Shown here: in pieces, positions 9,609 through 28,156 of the stretch | Numbering within the stretch: position 1 is the first letter of the stretch | How the letters are laid out: the number at the start of each line of letters is the position of its first letter | NCBI GenBank assembly: GCA_965223325.1 | Contig: CBDCWI010000002.1 | Span: 576,001 to 640,000, forward strand | Length of the DNA stretch: 64,000 nt | Source: Candidatus Multivoradales bacterium | Lineage (GTDB): Bacteria; Acidobacteriota; Thermoanaerobaculia; Multivoradales; Multivoraceae | Direction: 5' to 3' | Translations under genes and position numbers: made by a program | Notes under the pieces: model-generated | Seen by the model: the letters and a program-made list of their open reading frames with translations, nothing else | What the model was told of the DNA's origin: nothing | Database searches by the model: none

Positions 9609-10568
9609 ATGGGCCATCCACTCTGCTACGTACCGCCCGATGAGTCGGGCTGGCGAGTCGTCGAAGTCACTGCTCGAACCCATCGGGGCGCCTTCTTGCT
9701 GCGTCCCTCAGCGCAGCTTTGTGACCGCGTCATCGGCATTCTCGGGCGCGCACAGCGCGCCACGGAGGTGCGCATCTACCAATTCACCTATCTCTCGAAC
9801 CATCTGCACATGCTCCTCGGCGTACGAGACGGTCAGCAGTGCGCAGCCTTCATGCAGAGGGTCCAGGCCCAAACCAGCGTCGAGCTGCGCCACCTGGTGT
9901 CCTGGCGCGGGCCCGTGTGGCAGGGGCGCTACAAGAGGACTGTTCTGAGCCACGAGGCAGCAAACCTGACGCGCAGAATGCGGTACCTGCTGGCTCAGGG
10001 CTGCAAGGAGGGGCTGGTCGACTCCCCGCTTGACTGGCCTGGGCCGAGCTCCTCGCGGTCGCTCTGCGCGGCCGATTTCGAGTTGACTGGCAGCTGGATC
10101 GACCGCACCCGCATGTGCCGGGCGCCGAAGCATCAGCTCGGCGCCATGAGTCCGGCGGAAGATGACTTTCGAGAGGCGGAAACCGTGCACCTTTCGAAAC
10201 TCCCGGGGTTCGACCACCTCAGCGATGAAGCCTACGCAACCTGGGTGAAGAGCCTTGTCGAAGACATCGAACAAGCAACCGCCGCCATGCATCGCGCAGC
10301 GGGAACCCGACCCATGGGTGTGACCAGGGCCCTCCGAGCTCGACCGCATCATGTTCCCCGAAGGGTCGCCTGGGGACCGAGACCACGCGTCGTCGCGTCG
10401 AGCCGCCGTGAGCGCGAGCGCCTGATGGAAGCCCTCAGCATGGTGGTCGGCGCCTATCGGCGTGCGTGTAAGAAACGAGATGGAACCGACGGGGCGGTGA
10501 AGTTCCCGGAGGGAACATTCCCGAGCGCCCGCCGCTTCGTTCCCTCCCGAGACGGGCCGATGGCCTGA
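9609..10568 (+). mobile_element. REP-associated tyrosine (HUH/Y1) transposase, RAYT-like
   Basis: YLSNHLHMLL (HUH), VWQGRY, catalytic Y in RYLLAQGCKEGLV..P.DWPG; flanked by GTGTCTGACAC palindromes. Confidence 0.8.
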
Positions 10569-14413: not shown

Positions 14414-16093
14414 ATGCCGAAAAGCGTTCACGCCCTCTTTCTTCGCCGAGGCTCCGGTGCCCACCGTCATGCGCTGCGATTCCTCCTGGTCAGCGCGCTC
14501 TCGATCTTTGCCTGCTTGGGCTGCGAACCGGCGGGGGATCTGGGCGACGAGGAAGCTGCAAAGGCAAATGCCACCGAACAAGAAGCCGGACCGCCCGGGG
14601 GGCCGCCGGCGTGGATCCTCCAGGCAAAACAGCAGCCCCGAGGGTTGATCACCAGCACGCCAGACGCCGCACCCGGCTATCTCCTCTTCTCGACCTTTTC
14701 TCACAGCGCGACCTTCCTGGTCGATACCGCCGGGCAAGTCGTCCACACCTGGGACAGCGACCGATCGGGCTCCTCGAACTACCTCCAGGACGACGGCTCC
14801 CTGATTCGCATTTCGGGGCTCGACAACCCACCAAACTTTCACTCCGGCGGCGTCGCTGGTCATGTCGAGCAGGTCTCCTGGGATGGTGAGCTCCTCTGGC
14901 GCTGGCACTACGCCGACGAAGATAAGATCAACCACCACGACATCGAACCGCTCCCGAACGGCAACCTGCTGGTCATTGCCTGGGAACAGAAGACCGCTCG
15001 AGAAGCCCTCGCCGCCGGCCGCCGCGCCGACCTGGTCGGCAGCAAAGGCATCTGGTCTGAGGTTCTACTCGAAATCGAACCGCTGCCACCTGACGACGCG
15101 CGCATCGTTTGGGAATGGCGCATCTGGGACCACCTCGTGCAGGACATAGACCCTGAGGCCCCGAACTTCGGCGACCCTCGTGCCCATCCCCATCGCCTCG
15201 ACCTCAACGTTGACGCCGATCACGAGGCCATCGACGAAGAGGAACTCGAGCAACTCAAAGCACTCGGCTACGTTCCCGACGACGCCGACATGGACGACAT
15301 CGCCGCAGACTTCCTTCACATGAACAGTGTCGACTACAACGCAGCACTCGATCAGATCCTCCTGAGCATTCCCGAGGTCGACGAGATCTGGATCATCGAC
15401 CACTCGACCACCACAGCCGAGGCGGCCACCAGCTCTGGTGGCCGCTACGGTCGCGGCGGTGATCTGCTCTATCGCTGGGGCAACCCGGCCGCCTACGGCC
15501 GCGGAGACGAGAGCGACATTCAACTCTTCTACCAGCATGAAGCCACCTGGATCAGGGACGGCTCGCCCGGCGCCGGCAACGTCCTACTCTTCAACAACGG
15601 CCGCGACCGGCCCGATCCCGGCTGGTCTACCGTCGACGAGCTCACCCTTCCGGTCGCTGCCGACGGGTCCTACCCTTTGCCCGAGAACGGACCGTGGGGA
15701 CCTCCGGCACCCGCCTGGACCTTTGGCGGCCCGGACCGCCCCGAGTTCTTTGCCGAGTTCGTCTCCGGCGCGCGTCGCCTCCCGAACGGCAACACCTTCA
15801 TCTGCTCGGGCCCGCAAGGGGTCTACTGGGAGGTCACCCCCGACGGTGAAACCGTGTGGGAATACCGCAACCCATTCCACGGCGACTCCACTTCCTGGAC
15901 GCCTCCCGGCACCACCGAGACGTTTCCCTACGGCTCGTTCCGGGCGCACAAGATCGCCCCCGACCACCCCGGCCTAGAGAACCGCAGCTTGCAACCTCTA
16001 GAGGAACAACCTGCCACCTGGACGCCGCATCCGCGTCCCGCCGGACCTCCCGGGGCGCCAGAGGAACAAGCGGCGGCGAACGCCGATGCGTAG
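14414..16093 (+). CDS. Arylsulfotransferase (ASST)-like beta-propeller lipoprotein
   Basis: CLGC lipobox, HHDIEPLPNGN, HMNSVDY, IWIIDHSTT, GDLLYRWGNP, QH, SGARRLPNGNTFI. Confidence 0.85.
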   Translation: MPKSVHALFLRRGSGAHRHALRFLLVSALSIFACLGCEPAGDLGDEEAAKANATEQEAGPPGGPPAWILQAKQQPRGLITSTPDAAPGYLLFSTFSHSATFLVDTAGQVVHTWDSDRSGSSNYLQDDGSLIRISGLDNPPNFHSGGVAGHVEQVSWDGELLWRWHYADEDKINHHDIEPLPNGNLLVIAWEQKTAREALAAGRRADLVGSKGIWSEVLLEIEPLPPDDARIVWEWRIWDHLVQDIDPEAPNFGDPRAHPHRLDLNVDADHEAIDEEELEQLKALGYVPDDADMDDIAADFLHMNSVDYNAALDQILLSIPEVDEIWIIDHSTTTAEAATSSGGRYGRGGDLLYRWGNPAAYGRGDESDIQLFYQHEATWIRDGSPGAGNVLLFNNGRDRPDPGWSTVDELTLPVAADGSYPLPENGPWGPPAPAWTFGGPDRPEFFAEFVSGARRLPNGNTFICSGPQGVYWEVTPDGETVWEYRNPFHGDSTSWTPPGTTETFPYGSFRAHKIAPDHPGLENRSLQPLEEQPATWTPHPRPAGPPGAPEEQAAANADA

Positions 16094-16412
16094 GTACCAC
16101 CACATGGGTATCCCGACCAAAGAGCGGCTCCCAGACGAGGTCCACCTCGAGCACCTCAAGGTCTACGTCAGCGGCTACCGCGAGAGCGAGTTCAACATCG
16201 AGTGGATGCGCTACGAAAACGACGCGCCCTACCCCGAGCTCGTCAAGACCGTTCCCCATGTCGCCTTCGAGGTCGATGACCTGGAGGCAGCGATCGCGGG
16301 CAGAAAGGTGATCATCGAACCCAACAGCCCCAGCCCAGGAGTGCGGGTGGCAATGATCGAAGACAACGGTGCGCCGATCGAGTTCCTCGAGATCGACGAC
16401 ACCGTAAGGTAG
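16086..16412 (+). CDS. VOC/glyoxalase-like small protein
   Basis: YHHMGIPT, PHVAFEVDDL, GAPIEFLE. Confidence 0.8.
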   Translation: MRRYHHMGIPTKERLPDEVHLEHLKVYVSGYRESEFNIEWMRYENDAPYPELVKTVPHVAFEVDDLEAAIAGRKVIIEPNSPSPGVRVAMIEDNGAPIEFLEIDDTVR

Positions 16413-16871
16413 CGAGGGGCGTGGTACGAACGCCCACCTCGACCCCGTCAACCGGCACCCACCACTGACCGCGGGAACGATGAAGGCACGGTCGGCCTGA
16501 CCGGGAGCGGTCCTGAGCCTTCTACAGTCCCTTCATCGAAGGATTCCGCGGCGCGCGACGGAAGACCGCAGTCTCAGGTCGAATGTGCAGGGCGACCGCC
16601 GTCGAACCAGGCTCGCGCTACGGACCGCCTGCGCCGCAAGAGTGACGGTAGCGAGGGGCGTGGTACGAACGCCCACCTCGACCCCGTCAACCGGCACCCA
16701 CCAGCGACCGCGGGAACGATGAAGGCACGGTCGGGCCTGACCGGGAGCGGTCCTGAGCCTTCTACAGTCCCTTCATCGAAGGATTCCGCGGCGCGCGACG
16801 GAAGACCGCAGTCTCAGGTCGAATGTGCAGGGCGACCGCCGTCGAACCAGGCTCGCGCTACGGACCGCTTG

Positions 16872-18781
16872 GATACGCCGGGATAAACCGGCATGGAGAA
16901 AGGAATGAGAGAGTCCCACCCTCGAAGGGGTAGCGACCCAGAGGGTCCCCGAGTCATGCGCCGGCTCCCGCGAGGGTGCGGTGAAGCGTTGACAGGGGCA
17001 CACACAGGCCGGGTATTGAGCCGCGAAATAAGAATTTGGGAGTGCCGACGCTGTCAAGCGAAGCGGAAGGCGAGACTCCGTAGCGCGCTATCGCGAGCTC
17101 TGCGGCGACTCCCCGCGGTCGTAGACCCTGTGCATGTGTGGAATCTCCATGCGCGAGAACCGGGAGATCCGCGATCTGGCCAGTTGGGTATCTGGTCCGC
17201 ATCGGGAAGGCTAGAGGCCGTAAGCCGATGACGCACGGATGGCGGAAGTCAGACAGGCCCGTAGTACCTGCGAAGTCGTCGAACAACGGTGGGAGACCAG
17301 CGGCGGAGGCGGTGGAGGGAAGGGGCCTGGCCAAGGGGAACACGGGCAAGCAAAACGCACCCCGGACACAGAGCCGGATGGAGAGTGCGAGCAATGCGCT
17401 GGGCCGTGTACGAGAAGCCGCCCGCAGGGGCAAGGAAGTGAAGTTCACAGCGCTTCTTCACCACATCACGGTCGAGCGACTCCGGAGCGCATTTGACGTG
17501 TTGCACCGAGACGCAGCGGCAGGAGTGGACGGAGTGTCATGGAGCGAGTACGCAGAATCTTTGCTGAGCAATCTCGAGGACCTGCACTCTCGTGTCCACC
17601 GTGGGAGCTACCGGGCGAGTGCGACTCGTCGCGTCTACATCGAGAAATCGGATGGGCGGTTCCGACCGCTTGGCATCGCCACGTTGGAGGACAAGATCCT
17701 TCAGCGCGCCGTCGTCTCGGTGTTGGATGCGATCTACGAGGAAGACTTTCTCGGGTACTCATACGGATTCAGGCGAGGCCGCAGCCAGCACGATGCTTTG
17801 GATGCGCTATTCGTTGGAATCACAAAGCGGAAGGTGAACTGGGTGCTCGACGCAGACATTCGTGGGTTCTTCGATGCCCTGGACCACGAGTGGCTGGTGA
17901 AGTTTCTCGAGCACCGTATCGGAGACCGTAGGATCCTTCGCCTCATCCAGAAATGGCTGAGGTCCGGAGTGATGGAAGACGGTAAGTGGCACGCGAGCAC
18001 GCGGGGGACTCCTCAGGGGGCGACGATTTCGCCTCTCCTCGGGAACGTGTACCTGCACTACGTGCTCGATCTCTGGGTCCAGCAGTGGAGGAAACGCAAC
18101 GCGCTTGGGGACATGATCTTCGTGCGCTACGCGGATGACTTCATCGTTGGATTTGAGAGGCAGGAGGAGGCAGAACGATTCCTCGAGGAACTGAACCTGC
18201 GACTCCGTGACTTCTCGTTGGAGATCCAACCCGAGAAGACGCGCCTGCTGGAGTTTGGCCGCTTTGCGGCCTACAACCGACGCGCGCGAGGTCTCGGGCG
18301 GCCGGAGACCTTCGAGTTTCTAGGCTTTACGCACTGCTGTGCGCAGTCTAGTCGAGGGAGGTTCTTGCTGAAGCGCATCACGAGCCGCCACCGAATCCGC
18401 AGGACACTGAAGGCTGTCGGTACGGCCCTTCTGGGACACCGACACTCGCCGCTACCAGAGCAAGGTCTCTGGCTGGGATCCGTGGTGCGAGGCTTCAATG
18501 CCTACTACGGCGTACCCGGCAACTCAGCGGCGTTGAACGCCTTTCGACAGGAGGTCATTCGGCACTGGATGCGCGCTCTGCGCCGACGCAGTGACAAAGA
18601 CCGCACGTCCTGGAAACGGATGTGGGCCCTGGTGGCCCACTACCTACCCAAAGCCCGAGTCCAACATCCCTGGCCTGATGAGCGACTTGTCGTCAATACC
18701 TGAGGCAGGAGCCCAGTGCATTAGCAGTGCACGCTGGGATCTGTGCGGGGGGCGCCGGGCAACCGGCGCTCCTACCGCGAT
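16872..18781 (+). mobile_element. Group II intron (complete, about 1910 nt)
   Basis: Splits the repeat sequence CGCTTG|CGCCGCAAG exactly with no duplication; domain V GAGCCCAGTGC...GCACGCTGGGATC at about 18709-18741; domain VI ends CCTACCGCGAT; EBS1 CAAGCG at 17055-17060. Confidence 0.95.
17228..18703 (+). CDS. ltrA: Group II intron reverse transcriptase/maturase (no endonuclease domain)
   Basis: AAGVDG, RPLGI, SYGFR, DADIRGFFD, GTPQG, RYADDF, FEFLGF, domain X GFNAYY; ends soon after X. Confidence 0.95.
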   Translation: MTHGWRKSDRPVVPAKSSNNGGRPAAEAVEGRGLAKGNTGKQNAPRTQSRMESASNALGRVREAARRGKEVKFTALLHHITVERLRSAFDVLHRDAAAGVDGVSWSEYAESLLSNLEDLHSRVHRGSYRASATRRVYIEKSDGRFRPLGIATLEDKILQRAVVSVLDAIYEEDFLGYSYGFRRGRSQHDALDALFVGITKRKVNWVLDADIRGFFDALDHEWLVKFLEHRIGDRRILRLIQKWLRSGVMEDGKWHASTRGTPQGATISPLLGNVYLHYVLDLWVQQWRKRNALGDMIFVRYADDFIVGFERQEEAERFLEELNLRLRDFSLEIQPEKTRLLEFGRFAAYNRRARGLGRPETFEFLGFTHCCAQSSRGRFLLKRITSRHRIRRTLKAVGTALLGHRHSPLPEQGLWLGSVVRGFNAYYGVPGNSAALNAFRQEVIRHWMRALRRRSDKDRTSWKRMWALVAHYLPKARVQHPWPDERLVVNT

Positions 18782-19127
18782 CGCCGCAAGAGTGACGGTA
18801 GCGAGGGGCGTGGTAAGAACGCCCACCTCGACCCCGTCAACCGGCACCCACCACCGACCGCGGAAACGATGAAGGCACGGTCGGGCCTGACCGGGAGCGG
18901 TCCTGAGCCTTCTACAGTCCCTTCATCGAAGGATTCCGCGGCGCGCGACGAAAGACCGCAGTCTCAGGTCGAATGTGCAGGGCGACCGCCGTCGAACCCG
19001 GCTCGCGCTACGGACCGCTTGCGCCGCAAGAGTGACGGTAGCGAGGGGCGTGGTAAGAACGCCCACCTCGACCCCGTCAACCGGCACCCACCACTGACCG
19101 CGGAAACGATGACAACCACGCCCCTCG

Positions 19128-20348
19128 CTACCTCTCGGTGATCACACGGTGGGCGCGCAGGCGCAAGGCGTTGAGACGGATAAAGCCCTGCGCATCCGTC
19201 TGGTCGTAGCCGCCCGCTACGTCCATTGACGACAACTCCTGGTTGTAGAGCGAGCTCGGCGAGCGCCGCCCGAGAATACGCACATTGCCCTTGTAGAGCT
19301 CGATCCCGACCGTGCCGTCGATGAGCTCCTCGGCCTTCGCGAACGCCGCGCGAATAAAGTCCATTTCGGGGCTGAACCAGAAACCGTTGTAGATCAACTC
19401 GGTGAATTTCGGCGACAGGCTGTCGCGGAGCCGCAGGACCTCGCGGTCCATCGCGATGCCTTCGAGATCGCGCAAGGCTGCATGCAAGACCGTCCCGGCA
19501 GGCGTTTCGTAGACCCCCCGCGACTTGATGCCAACGAAACGGTTCTCGACGATGTCGATACGGCCCACCCCGTGCTCGGCGGCCAGTTCGTTGAGCCGTA
19601 CGAAAAGCGCCAGAGGCTCGCGCTCTTCTCCGCCCGGCCAGTTCAACTGCACCGGCCGCGCGTCCCGGAAGCGAAGCTCGATCTCGACCGCCTCGTCGGG
19701 CGCATCGAAAGCCGAACGCGTCAGGTCGTACATCGAGTCCGGCGGCGTTTTCGCCGGGTCTTCGAGCATGCCCGCTTCATAGCTCTTGTGCATGAGGTTT
19801 TCATCCATGCTGTAGGGCTTCTCAGACGATGCCTCGATGGGGATTCCCTCCTTCTCGGCGTACTCCAACAAGTCGGTGCGGCCGCGAAAGCGAGCCAAGA
19901 ACTCGGAGTCTTTCCATGGCGCGATGACTTCGAGGTGAGGCCCCAGTGCCGCGTACGCGAGTTCGAAACGCACCTGGTCGTTGCCCTTGCCAGTGGCACC
20001 GTGCCCCACCGCAGTGGCTCCGTGTTCGATCGCACAGTCGACTTGCGCGCGCGCGATCAGCGGACGCGCCAGAGAGGTGCCTAGAAGGTAGCGGTTTTCA
20101 TATACCGCGTTGCCAGCCACCGCCGGAAAGATGAAGTCGGTGACGAACTCTCCCTTGAGGTCGGCAATGATCACATCGGAGGCGCCAATCGCCTCCGCGC
20201 GCCGCGCACCGACCTCGAAGTCTTCGTTCTGGCCTACATCGGCAATGAAGGCGATGACGTCGTAGCCCTTCTGCTGCAGAACGCGCAGAATGACCGAGGT
20301 GTCGAGGCCCCCGGAGTAGGCAAGTACCGCTTTCTTCTTGGTCGACAT
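19128..20348 (-). CDS. argG: Argininosuccinate synthase
   Basis: [38 protein letters not shown]. Confidence 0.97.
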
Positions 20349-20513
20349 CGGAAGCTTCCTTCCTGTTGGGTTCATCTTGTGTGAGATGGGGCCGGCGCAG
20401 TATCCCCCATCCGGCCCCGGATCGGAACCCTTCGAGCGTGCGCTTTGCCGCAAGTGGGCCCACGCCGTCAAACCCAGAGGGCGCGGGCCGGAGTCTTGGA
20501 AGACTGTGGGCTC

Positions 20514-24931: not shown

Positions 24932-27565
24932 ATGGATTTCGCTGTTACTCTGGGGTGGATGCGCGATGACGCCGAATCCTTCGCGACGGGTGGTTCACTA
25001 CCTGGCCAACCGCTGCACTTTCGGCTCGCGGTGCTCATGGTGGCCCTCGCGACCCTCGCCGCCGCCTCGCCCGTCTGCGCGCAAAACGCCAGTGAACCTC
25101 GGTCACTCAGAAGCGCTCTCGAAGAACTGGCAGCCAACGGCCTGTCGGTCATCTTCACCGAAGCGCTCGTCCTCGAGCACATGCAGGTGACCGAGGAGCC
25201 CCAGACCGATGACCCGGTCGTCGTGTTGCAGGCGCTCCTGGCGCCCCATGGACTGGTCGCTCTCGAGCGCACCGAGGGGCTTTGGGTCGTCGCTCGCGCA
25301 ACCGGCGCACGCCTCAGCCAGGGAATCGCCGGCAGGGTGCTGGCTCGACACTCACAAGAACCCGTCGCTGGGGTCTCGCTCTCTGCCCGGAACCTGAGCG
25401 GCAACGCTTCTCACCAAACGACCAGTCGCGGCGACGGTCACTTCGCGTTGCCGGACCTTCCGGCGGGAAGCTACTCGTTGGTGTTCGAACGAACCGGCTT
25501 CTTGCCCGAGACCTTGGCAAGGCTCGACGTGCGCGAGGAAGGCACACCGCTGGTCACCGCCTGGATGACCGCTGCACCATACCTGCACGAAGAAATCGTC
25601 GTGCGCTCTGGCAACATCACCTTGATCGGCGCCAATCCCGCGTCGCCTCTTTCGCTGAGTCGTGATCAGATCGAAGCACTCCCCCACCTCGGCAACGACG
25701 TCTTTCGGACGCTCGAGCTGTTCCCTGGCGTCACCAGCAACGACATCAGCGCCAGGTTCAACGTGCATGGCGGGCGACCGGACGAGGTCAAGGTCCTTCT
25801 GGATGGCCAGGAACTCTACAACGCCTTCCACCTCGAGGACTGGGGTGGCGCGCTGTCGCAAGTGGACGCCGGTGAGCTCGGCAATGCCGCCCTCACGACC
25901 GGTGGGTTCGCCGCCGAACATGGCGACCGCATGGGCGCGGTGCTCGACCTTCGCACCCGCGGCGCCTCCGGGCCTCTTCGAGGCCGCCTGAACGCCTCGC
26001 TGCTCTCCATTGCGCTCTCGGGTGCCGGCCCGATCGCGCGCGAACGGGGAGGTTGGTTGGCCTCGGCCCGGCGCGGGTCGCTCGACCTTGCGGGCCGCCT
26101 CTACGGAGACGAGAGGCCGGAGTTCTGGGATGGGTTCGCAAAGCTCGAGTGGATACCGACAAGTCGAGAGCGCCTCCGTGCCCATAGCCTGACCGCCCGC
26201 AACCAGCTGCGTTTCACCGAGCAGGTCCTTGGCGACGACTTCATCGAGGAGTCCAACTTCGCAACCAACTACAACAACGCGGTTCACTGGCTGAGCCATC
26301 AGGTGGCAGTCGGCTACCACTCGCTGGCCACCACCCGTGTCTCGTGGTCTGAGGCGAGCCGCAATCGACTCGGCCTCGAGAACGAAGAGGACCAGAGCTT
26401 CATGGTCGACGATCGTCGAGACAGCTCCGTCATTGACCTGTCCCATGGCTGGATCTTTCAACTCAGCCCTCGGCGGAGTCTCGAGGCGGGTCTCCAGGCA
26501 CGGAGGTTCGACGCGGAGTTCGACTACTTCAACCGCTCCGATCAAGAGCTCGGCGTCGCTGCTCCGGGAAGCGCTGCGAGCACCTCGGACCGCGTACAAA
26601 CCAGCCACCGAAGCGACCACTTCGGCAGCTACGTCACCGGTCGCTTCGCTCCCGACCCACTCACGATCGAGGTCGGCCTACGCTACGACCGCCACACCTT
26701 GACCGATGACACGCTCCTGAGCCCGCGTTTCAACCTGGCCTGGCGAGTAGCCCCGAGAACCGTCGCACGGCTTCATTGGGGTCTCTTTCATCAAAGCCAG
26801 AGGCCCTACGAACTGCAGGTCGAAGACGGCGTTTCCACCTTCTTTCCCGCCGAGCGTTCGGAACACCGGACACTCAGCTTCGAACAGCAGGTGAACCGAA
26901 AAGCCAGCGCACTCCTCCGCACCGTGCGCGTCGAGCTCTACCGTCGCGAGGTCGACAACCCACGGCCTGAGTGGCGCAACATCTACGAACCCTTCAACAC
27001 CTTCCCCGAGGTCGAGCGCGATCGGACGTTCCTGGCGCCCGACTACCGCCTCGCCGAAGGCGTCGAGTTGTCGCTTCGCGGCGGCGGGCACAGGAACGTG
27101 GGCTGGTGGCTGAACTACACGCACGGGACGTCTGAAGATCACCGTGGGTCGGAGCGTCTCCCGCGCCCGCAGAGCGAACCCGACAGCGCCGCTTTCGGCC
27201 TCAATCTCATCTTGCCGCGGCACTTCCAACTCAACCTCGCCTGGCGGTACCACACCGGCTGGCCCACGACTCCTGCCAGCCTCGCCTTCAGGCCCGACGA
27301 AGACGGCGAACCTACGCCTATTCTGATCGCGGGCTCGCTCTACGCCGACCGCCTGCCCGACTACCATCGATTGGACATCCGTCTCAGTCGGCGCTGGCAG
27401 TTTTCGTCGTCGCAACTGCGCATCTTTCTCGACCTGCAGAACGCCTACGATCGCGACAACATCGCCGGCTTCGACTTCGAGGTCACGGACGATGGGTTGT
27501 TGGAACGCCATCCGGAGGAATGGGCGGGGATCTTTCCGTCGCTAGGGATCGATTTCCGGTGGTAA
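24932..27565 (+). CDS. TonB-dependent receptor with N-terminal signalling-type extension and carboxypeptidase-like domain
   Basis: Plug (FPGV, NVHGG, LDG), GLRYD, SPRFN, RLD, C-terminal aromatic residues (DFRW); true start may be downstream. Confidence 0.88.
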   Translation: MDFAVTLGWMRDDAESFATGGSLPGQPLHFRLAVLMVALATLAAASPVCAQNASEPRSLRSALEELAANGLSVIFTEALVLEHMQVTEEPQTDDPVVVLQALLAPHGLVALERTEGLWVVARATGARLSQGIAGRVLARHSQEPVAGVSLSARNLSGNASHQTTSRGDGHFALPDLPAGSYSLVFERTGFLPETLARLDVREEGTPLVTAWMTAAPYLHEEIVVRSGNITLIGANPASPLSLSRDQIEALPHLGNDVFRTLELFPGVTSNDISARFNVHGGRPDEVKVLLDGQELYNAFHLEDWGGALSQVDAGELGNAALTTGGFAAEHGDRMGAVLDLRTRGASGPLRGRLNASLLSIALSGAGPIARERGGWLASARRGSLDLAGRLYGDERPEFWDGFAKLEWIPTSRERLRAHSLTARNQLRFTEQVLGDDFIEESNFATNYNNAVHWLSHQVAVGYHSLATTRVSWSEASRNRLGLENEEDQSFMVDDRRDSSVIDLSHGWIFQLSPRRSLEAGLQARRFDAEFDYFNRSDQELGVAAPGSAASTSDRVQTSHRSDHFGSYVTGRFAPDPLTIEVGLRYDRHTLTDDTLLSPRFNLAWRVAPRTVARLHWGLFHQSQRPYELQVEDGVSTFFPAERSEHRTLSFEQQVNRKASALLRTVRVELYRREVDNPRPEWRNIYEPFNTFPEVERDRTFLAPDYRLAEGVELSLRGGGHRNVGWWLNYTHGTSEDHRGSERLPRPQSEPDSAAFGLNLILPRHFQLNLAWRYHTGWPTTPASLAFRPDEDGEPTPILIAGSLYADRLPDYHRLDIRLSRRWQFSSSQLRIFLDLQNAYDRDNIAGFDFEVTDDGLLERHPEEWAGIFPSLGIDFRW

Positions 27566-28156
27566 CGATCGCCGTGGTTTGACGGCCTCTTTAGGGCGAC
27601 GGTGGGTTCGGGTGGCGGTGCTGTTGGAGCGGCTGACTCGTGAGTGCGGCAGGTCGTTACCACGGCGATCGTTACCCGTCACTTTTGCGGCGCAAGCGCT
27701 CCGACGGGCGGGCTGTGTGCGGGGGCGCTCGCCCTGCACTTGCGATCTCGGACTACGGCGGCCCGGCGCGCGCCGCGGATTCTTACCCTCTCGAAACCTC
27801 TTCCCGGAAGTCCTTCTCAGAGCTCCCTGGCTGGATGACCGCCAGATCGCTACCGGTCGCCCTGCACTTGCGATCTCGGACTGCGGTGGCACGGCGCGCG
27901 CCGCGGATTCTTGCCCTCTCGAAACCTCTTCCCGGAAGTCCTTTTCAGAGCTCCCTGGTTGGATGACCGCCAGATCGCTACCGGTCGCCCTGCACTTGCG
28001 ATCTCGGACTGCGGTGGCACGGCGCGCGCCGCGGATTCTTGCCCTCTCGAAACCTCTTCCCGGAAGTCCTTTTCAGAACTCCCTGGCTGGATGACCGCCA
28101 GATCGCTACCGGTCACGCCCGCGCAGCAAGCGCTCCGACGCGCGGCTGTGTGCGCC
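27561..28156 (-). repeat. Second REP/BIME-like mosaic: 18-bp inverted repeat pair plus three 128-bp tandem units
   Basis: IR GGTAACGATCGCCGTGGT 27561-27578 / 27659-27676; units start at 27729, 27857 and 27985; shares a ~58-bp core and the junction motif with the 16.4-19.1 kb array in reverse orientation. Confidence 0.92.

Follow-up and report, generated by a model that had tools for sequence, protein, structure and literature searches.

Group II introns, from which spliceosomal introns are presumed to descend, also underlie the targetron tools, and their way of finding safe places in a genome is a central question. It is raised in a concrete form by a stretch of 64,000 nucleotides (the window) from Candidatus Multivoradales bacterium of the Acidobacteriota (contig CBDCWI010000002.1, positions 576,001 to 640,000). 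In the window a group II intron of 1910 nt interrupts one unit of a tandem intergenic repeat. Does the repeat serve as the homing site of the intron, as an initial annotation of the window supposed? The answer presented here is that it very probably does: the element appears to be a mobile group II intron devoid of an endonuclease (En-minus), recently and probably still active, that homes to the conserved core of a lineage-specific, structured intergenic repeat of ca. 250 nt.

The intron, its copies and its sites

The intron occupies positions 16872–18781 of the plus strand, with GAUACG at its 5' end and ...CCUACCGCGAU at its 3' end; these ends were set by empty sites of the repeat and by 14 copies with the same termini. 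As had been annotated, it lies exactly at a junction within the second unit of an array, without duplication. The 5' part of this unit (16648–16871, +) constitutes the 5' exon, which reads ...ACGGACCGCTTG and whose last six bases, CGCTTG (16866–16871), form the intron-binding site 1 (IBS1). The intron opens at 16872 with GATACGCC, and the 3' part of the unit (18782–18796, +), CGCCGCAAGAGTGAC, is the 3' exon, which starts with CGCCGCAAG, the target duplication at CGCTTG|CGCC being zero. The complement of IBS1, the exon-binding site 1 (EBS1) CAAGCG, is found at 17055–17060 (+), again in agreement with the initial annotation.

The genome assembly (6.69 Mb in two contigs, C1 and C2) contains 14 full-length copies of the intron detected by blastn, of which 12 are 100% identical and two are 99.95% identical (one difference) over 1910 nt. 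The reverse transcriptase (RT) frame is open in all 14 (539 codons). The same position of the repeat is occupied, with exact junctions, by 13 of the 14 copies, their 5' flanks ending with (G/C)GNCCGCTTG or GACGCTTG and their 3' flanks opening with C(G/A)C, while the remaining copy is ectopic and lies in the sense orientation inside a GNAT-like open reading frame (ORF), at the junction GAGCGCTTG|CAGTTGG. A profile of the repeat was derived from reconstructed empty sites, of which the 11 cleanest were taken. It matches 183 pieces of the genome at 59 loci, most of which are tandem arrays (periods of 128–305 bp); the loci make up 0.49% of the genome, and 46 of the 59 carry no intron. The central claim of the initial annotation, that a multicopy repeat serves the intron for homing, is borne out by 13 of 14 copies at one position, ca. 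123 empty sites and 59 loci, and in this genome the copies are neither placed mostly in non-repeat targets nor is the repeat confined to two loci. On metagenome contigs from four runs the summed depth is higher over the intron, and loose ends match other copies in the same genome.

The repeats flanking different filled loci are only ca. 70–80% alike and are locus-specific, in contrast to an identity of at least 99.9% among the introns, and the insertions are therefore independent recent events and not duplications of a filled unit. Passive spread, in which a filled unit would be copied by the repeat's own mechanism and the intron would need no mobility, is compatible with the multicopy nature of the repeat, its arrays of near-identical units and the same junction at all filled sites. 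Nevertheless, it is extremely unlikely, since near-identical introns are embedded in divergent repeats with different hypervariable arms, one copy lies outside any repeat, and the 13 filled loci, in spite of their arrays of near-identical units, hold one intron each and never more (in the first unit in five loci, in a middle unit in two, in the last unit in four, and in a sole unit in two).

Two other loci relate to the history of the intron at its target. A 237-nt fragment of the intron 3' end (C2:4242250–4242488, 97% identical) still adjoins the 3' exon of the repeat, but its 5' side is truncated by AT-rich sequence of foreign appearance, which probably reflects a later insertion or rearrangement. 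At C2:721852–721997 (minus strand) a repeat unit reads GGACCGC-GAT-CGCCGCAAG instead of GGACCGC-TTG-CGCC, a probable footprint of intron deletion via recombination between two ACCGC sequences, one in the 5' exon and the other at the intron 3' end.

The heptamer CGCTTGC, counted as an empty site, occurs 1797 times in the genome, 123 times inside the repeat loci and 1674 times outside them, and the repeat offers ca. 136 candidate sites overall. Set against this background, 13 insertions inside the repeat loci and one outside indicate that the intron reads more than the heptamer. The string GGACCGCTTGCGC has 72 occurrences, 71 of them inside the repeat loci and one outside, and GGACCGCTTGC is found 81 times inside vs. 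nine times outside. The genome therefore presents a natural experiment, a young burst with ca. 136 near-identical sites of which 13 are filled, and with a single insertion among 1674 decoy heptamers, and it makes the additional determinants of target choice, be they further pairing, protein contacts or the shape of the nucleic acid, open to testing.

In the mechanism proposed, the intron would be transcribed within the transcript of the repeat and would then splice out, and the resulting RNA–protein particle would reverse-splice into DNA at ...GGACCGCTTG|CGCC, with EBS1 (CAAGCG) reading the six bases before the site and with further context being read too. Without an endonuclease, copying into cDNA would presumably start from a primer supplied by replication. 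As the 11–13-nt core is nearly confined to the repeat, each intact unit would be an intergenic landing site, presumably at a low cost to the host, and the ectopic copy would represent a single retrotransposition to a look-alike site within a gene.

The region of ribozyme domain I (16910–17128, +) matches the Rfam model RF02005 (group-II-D1D4-6) over its full span (1–225) with 180.6 bits (E 4e-54; gathering score, 49), a match that covers the domain I–IV structure, and EBS1 falls in the hairpin loop carrying it in the RF02005 alignment. In the minimum-free-energy fold of 18696–18781 (z −3.4), a hairpin with a bulge precedes a long stem from which UA is bulged out. The former, predicted at ca. 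18705–18744 (+) and having a 2-nt bulge, is domain V-like, and the latter (18745–18778, +) is the predicted domain VI, with the bulged UA seven nt ahead of the intron 3' end.

The intron-encoded protein (17228–18703, +) comprises an RT domain and a C-terminal tail and is 491 aa long from the ATG, or 521 aa if started at the GTG at 17138. The only Pfam domain in the 521-aa frame is RVT_1 (E 9e-39); no HNH/En domain was detected, and hence the intron is taken to lack an endonuclease, nor was the maturase (GIIM) domain detected by Pfam in this frame. The best PDB matches of the RT are group II intron RTs, those of class IIC with 136–145 bits and those of IIA/IIB with 128–134 bits. The solved IIC, IIA and IIB enzymes are about equidistant and do not discriminate between these classes for the intron. 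The nearest named RTs in the plasmid collection are those of Pseudomonas putida-group introns (59% identity).

Structure of the repeat and recognition of the site

Complete elements of the repeat (n = 28) are 226–269 nt long, with one exception of 173 nt, and comprise, in this order, a module of ca. 130 nt ending with GTGAC, an 18-nt left arm, a partly conserved loop, and an 18-nt right arm. The loop separating the arms measures 60–83 nt in 26 of the 28 elements, the two remaining loops being of 3 nt and 74 nt. The insertion site is located in a helix, called H1, in which GCGGCGCGCG near the 5' end of the element pairs with CGC-TT-GCGCCGC, the site being in the 3' strand. Across 21 sequences the pairing of H1 reaches 99.5%, both sides have changed in four of the ten pairs, the TT bulge is conserved, and its covariation score was reached by none of 500 shuffles. 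The initial annotation had placed the site in one arm of a local mini-palindrome. The sequence of this palindrome is indeed present, but it competes with H1 for the same bases, shows no compensatory pairs vs. four in H1, and has its outer pair broken in 12 of the 21 rows, so that H1, and not the palindrome, is the supported structure of the site. Single-sequence folds reveal a GC-rich hairpin 9–10 nt upstream of the insertion site; RNAalifold gave no consensus for the region inside H1, where the MAFFT alignment used was not structure-aware.

The second helix of the element is formed by the arms. Their middle part is hypervariable, yet the arms are paired at 18 of 18 positions in 23 of the 47 loci and at 17 or more in 40 of them. 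Read on the strand carrying the intron in sense, as all 13 insertions do, the internal mismatches of the arms comprise nine G.U, no A.C and four others, a tolerance of G.U that argues for an RNA read in the intron-sense direction. The hypervariable arms might also be regarded as a 'guide' copied from a target, a reading that was considered; concerted evolution of an inverted repeat explains them more simply.

On the side of the intron, the pairing between EBS1 and IBS1 was compared among homologues of the intron-encoded protein from metagenome-assembled genomes (MAGs; 49–62% protein identity). The present intron has CAAGCG facing CGCTTG, introns L001, L004 and L007 have UAAGCG facing CGCTTA, L009 has UAACCG facing CGGTTA, L012 has UAAGCU facing GGCTTA, and L005 has CCAGGUG facing CACTTGG, so that the assignment of EBS1–IBS1 is confirmed by its covariation in five of the homologues. 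The first base of the 3' exon is C in 13 of the 14 copies and in most of the relatives.

Several observations weigh against an intron that actively homes in this manner. Its 5' end, GAUACG, departs from the canonical GUGYG (the 3' end, AU, fits AY; the relatives begin with GUACG in the gammaproteobacterial introns, GUAGCG, or GAUGCG, one of them from the same order), and RF00029, the Rfam model of domains V/VI, was not matched in 16300–19300 even at E ≤ 10; the self-splicing competence thus rests on the identity of the copies and on the predicted fold. No sigma-70-like promoters were predicted in 16000–19400, in a promoter and terminator scan that was uninformative overall. The copies show no replication-strand bias, eight being co-oriented with the leading strand and six opposed to it on a GC-skew map inferred from the two-contig assembly with C1 taken as inverted relative to C2, and lagging-strand priming gains no support from these numbers. 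Moreover, the intron–repeat system was seen in one genome only, without an independent replicate. Finally, a search of domain I by eye found no EBS2, the sole GGUCCG (17195–17200) being outside this domain, and identical introns in one gammaproteobacterial MAG are preceded by unrelated bases at −7 to −12.

One candidate for the source of the extra specificity is the structure of the target. In such a case the recognition step, though not homing itself, would resemble that of class C (IIC) introns: pairing would be confined to IBS1 and the first base of the 3' exon, and a folded single-stranded repeat, with either H1 and its TT bulge or the upstream hairpin, would be needed. The intron would then favour the repeat because of its shape and not because of a longer sequence. 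IIC introns are reported to read DNA hairpins together with short EBS–IBS pairings, according to passages of PMC12584367 and PMC4424553. The failure of the heptamer alone to explain 13 insertions inside the repeat vs. one outside speaks for a structural component, as do the missing EBS2, the unrelated bases at −7 to −12 in relatives, and the position of the site within a covarying helix with a conserved bulge, 9–10 nt downstream of a GC-rich hairpin. However, an IBS1 sequestered in H1 should hinder its pairing with EBS1, the ectopic site has no repeat context, and the sequence GGACCGCTTGC alone separates inner from outer sites almost as well (81 vs. nine). Structure-dependent recognition is accordingly regarded as possible but rather doubtful.

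Known systems, related introns and distribution of the repeat

The strategy of homing into an element present in many copies is already known. RmInt1 of Sinorhizobium meliloti homes into ISRm2011-2 and spreads by retrohoming, as described in parts of PMC1802570 and PMC4615759. Like the intron described here, RmInt1 is an En-minus RT/maturase element present in a high copy number, whose natural site lies inside another multicopy mobile element. The target of RmInt1, however, is a transposase gene, whereas here it is a non-coding, structured, tandem repeat of ca. 250 nt with ca. 136 sites. Moreover, RmInt1 belongs to class D, a class not claimed for the present intron with its GAUACG 5' end. More generally, sections of PMC4424553 distinguish three target specificities of bacterial introns (homing sites, terminator motifs and attC sites) and describe introns of classes C, D, E and F as all lacking an endonuclease and using replication-derived primers, and a part of PMC12584367 describes most bacterial introns as intergenic or residing within other mobile elements, and IIC introns as reading DNA hairpins.

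IIC introns share with the present one the lack of an endonuclease and the use of abundant, non-coding, hairpin-forming intergenic motifs (parts of PMC4424553, PMC12584367 and PMC1702495). They differ in having a very short IBS1, no EBS2, and insertion just after a terminator or attC hairpin, as opposed to a 6-bp IBS1 and a site that forms part of the 3' strand of a long-range helix, in a single repeat family. The 6-bp IBS1, the site within a helix, the lack of a T-run at the insertion site, and an RT not specifically close to those of IIC introns do not fit class IIC. A case of mobile elements within extragenic repeats, and in this respect a similar one, is that of P. putida KT2440, for which the relevant part of PMC1525189 gives an association with repetitive extragenic palindromes (REPs) in 7/7 cases for ISPpu9 and ISPpu10 and in 2/9 for a group II intron. 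The latter association is weak (22%) in comparison with 93% for the intron and the repeat described here.

The initial annotation considered the repeat to be like REPs or bacterial interspersed mosaic elements (BIMEs), and in this it did not hold. REPs are, in a section of PMC2817692, 20–35-nt palindromes flanking genes of the RAYT transposases. The repeat resembles REP, BIME and REPIN sequences in being intergenic, multicopy, hairpin-forming and close to gene 3' ends, and in keeping its palindromy by complementary changes; moreover, its (G/C)TAG head is reminiscent of the GT(A/G)G head of REPs. Nevertheless, REPs and BIMEs are built of imperfect palindromes of 20–40 nt, alternating in orientation in BIMEs, whereas the unit of the repeat is ca. 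250 nt (240 bp in the array of the window), is arranged head-to-tail, and has 18-nt arms. Further differences are its two long-range helices, a loop of ca. 80 nt, the hypervariability of the 18-bp arms and the convergent stop codon embedded in them, and the lack of linkage with RAYT genes, and the identity with REP/BIME was therefore rejected. The genome has 28 matches to PF01797 (Y1 transposase), e.g., at 9723–9956 (+) of the window, with open frames of ca. 170–410 aa, many of them clustered near the ends of both contigs. Only one of the 28 ORFs has a repeat locus no more than 600 bp from it, the next nearest being 5–7 kb away, and a linkage of the repeat with Y1 transposases was also rejected. 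Rfam gave no match for the repeat over 16300–19300 at E ≤ 10.

The repeat was not found in the other genomes searched: BLAST with one unit matched 0 of 40 relatives, a covariance model (R1) with strict filters found it in 0 of 60 relatives, a gapped pattern matched none of 400 genomes from the phylum, and plasmid and phage collections contained no match to the full element. Four contigs returned by a pattern scan of metagenomes were dismissed as chance hits, as none of them fits the profile of the repeat or the intron. The nearest sampled genome, from the same genus, is distant (its ArgG is 71% identical), so 'lineage-specific' means only that the repeat has not been seen elsewhere so far. Degenerate or fragmentary introns related to the present one, with 65–91% nucleotide identity over pieces, are found in the same family and order (L027 in genome G001 of the same genus, L029, L030, L033 and L034), with unrelated flanks that do not contain the repeat.

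With the intron's 14 RT genes being the only RVT_1 matches in the genome, and with no link between the repeat and the 28 Y1-transposase ORFs, the repeat could be thought of as a product or dependent of the intron RT, its units being non-autonomous retroelements or copied exon fragments of common origin with the intron, in the manner of SINEs and LINEs, and template switching could in principle yield its tandem head-to-tail arrays. Such an origin is quite improbable, as the copies of the repeat are far more diverged than the introns, which makes the repeat the older of the two, 46 of the 59 loci are free of the intron, the only sequence common to both is ACCGC, and the relatives of the intron in the same family and order have repeat-free flanks.

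Elsewhere in the lineage of the intron, homing into multicopy sequences is indicated by L005, L008 and L011 from a Solirubrobacterales MAG, in which a 59%-identical intron occupies three copies of one conserved coding sequence, near the coding start (...LLPP..DWLPE.H|...). This host sequence presumably resembles the N-terminus of an insertion sequence transposase. The 5' flanks of L004 and L010 (one gammaproteobacterial MAG) and of L009 (a Steroidobacteraceae MAG) share a motif, TAGTGYGCACGTGTNCACCTAT..., ca. 60–90 nt upstream of the site, followed by a stop-codon-like triplet and by AAGGTGA ca. 20 nt before the site; judging by these flanks, the three introns may also target a small repeated element.

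What is new in the system described here is a non-coding, structured, tandem target with the site inside a helix, the specialisation of 13 of 14 copies on it, and the large set of empty sites. The target element itself is possibly new in kind. The initial annotation did not recognise the combination as a described one. A search of the open-access literature found indeed neither the repeat nor any intron specialised on a target of this type, but the strategy as such is already in print.

The repeat in the window and at the ends of genes

The array of the window was delimited by Tandem Repeats Finder as head-to-tail units starting from 16408, with a period of 240 and 98% matches. It consists of unit 1 (16408–16647, +), with the left arm at 16408–16425, a part of the loop, a spacer and the module, of unit 2 split by the intron, of unit 3 (18797–19036, +), and of a terminal hairpin (19037–19132, +), in which the left arm (19037–19054) and the right arm (19115–19132) pair at 18 of 18 positions across a 60-nt loop. 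Unit 3 carries an intact empty site, ACGGACCGCTTG|CGCCGCAAG, at 19021|19022, and the empty site of unit 1, CGCCTG|C (16626–16631, with the bar at 16631|16632), has one mismatch in IBS1, both as initially annotated. A further empty site, correctly predicted on the minus strand at 27693|27692, belongs to a complete element at a second locus (27555–27805, −).

Both ORFs flanking the array end in its arms. The upstream one (16086–16412, +), coding for 108 aa without a Pfam match, has its in-frame TAG at 16410–16412 within the first left arm, and the convergent argininosuccinate synthase gene argG (19128–20471, −) has its TAG stop (CTA at 19128–19130 on the plus strand) within the right arm; both end with ...AGG TAG CGAGGGGCGTGGT. 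Likewise, the 18-bp arm hairpin at 27555–27805 bears the TAA stop of a convergent ORF. In 22 of the 28 complete elements of the genome, the opposite strand carries a long ORF with a high G+C content at third codon positions (GC3) whose stop codon is formed by the outer 3–5 nt of the right arm, and in two further elements such a stop is no more than 3 nt away from the arm. The stop embedded in the arm is TAG in 20 of the 22 cases, vs. 42% in a crude genome-wide ORF set, and the left arm has a matching copy of the stop, also in both TGA/TAA cases. The genes ending in this way are unrelated and ordinary (guaB-like IMPDH, class II aminoacyl-tRNA synthetase, amidase, ArgG, SDR, protein kinase, and others), with Pfam matches for 17 of the 19 examined. 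The crude set comprises 1451 long ORFs with high GC3, whose stops are TAG in 42%, TGA in 52% and TAA in 6%. The tetranucleotide CTAG is ca. 4.6-fold under-represented (4857 observed vs. ca. 22,200 expected).

The repeat is an unannotated family making up ca. 0.5% of the genome, whose terminal hairpin embeds the stop codons of genes such as those of IMPDH and aminoacyl-tRNA synthetase and argG, so that many housekeeping genes may be influenced by it in their termination or 3'-end biology. Tentatively, a step further could be taken, and the target could be viewed as an element of a new kind, either a gene for a structured RNA or a mobile module, lineage-specific, ca. 250 nt long and docked tail-to-tail on the stop codons of unrelated housekeeping genes, with the stop codon on one strand of its 18-bp terminal helix and the copy of this codon on the other. 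Such a module would be amplified into arrays in place, and the intron would read its folded core instead of a simple sequence, giving a two-tier, RNA-structure-based parasite-on-parasite system.

The window also contains an array of three truncated 128-bp units (27729–28114, −), in each of which a piece like the left arm is combined with only the 5' half of the module; with GCGACC|GGTAGCGA as the junction between units, the homing site is missing. Other arrays repeat different sub-segments of the element, such as that at C2:700869–701366, built of 130-bp units ending at model position 109. As to the layout of the genome, the cumulative GC skew falls monotonically along the whole of C1 and turns on C2 at ca. 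0.35 Mb and ca. 3.5 Mb, a pattern that would fit a single circular chromosome (6.69 Mb), in which C1 is inverted in relation to C2, rather than two replicons.

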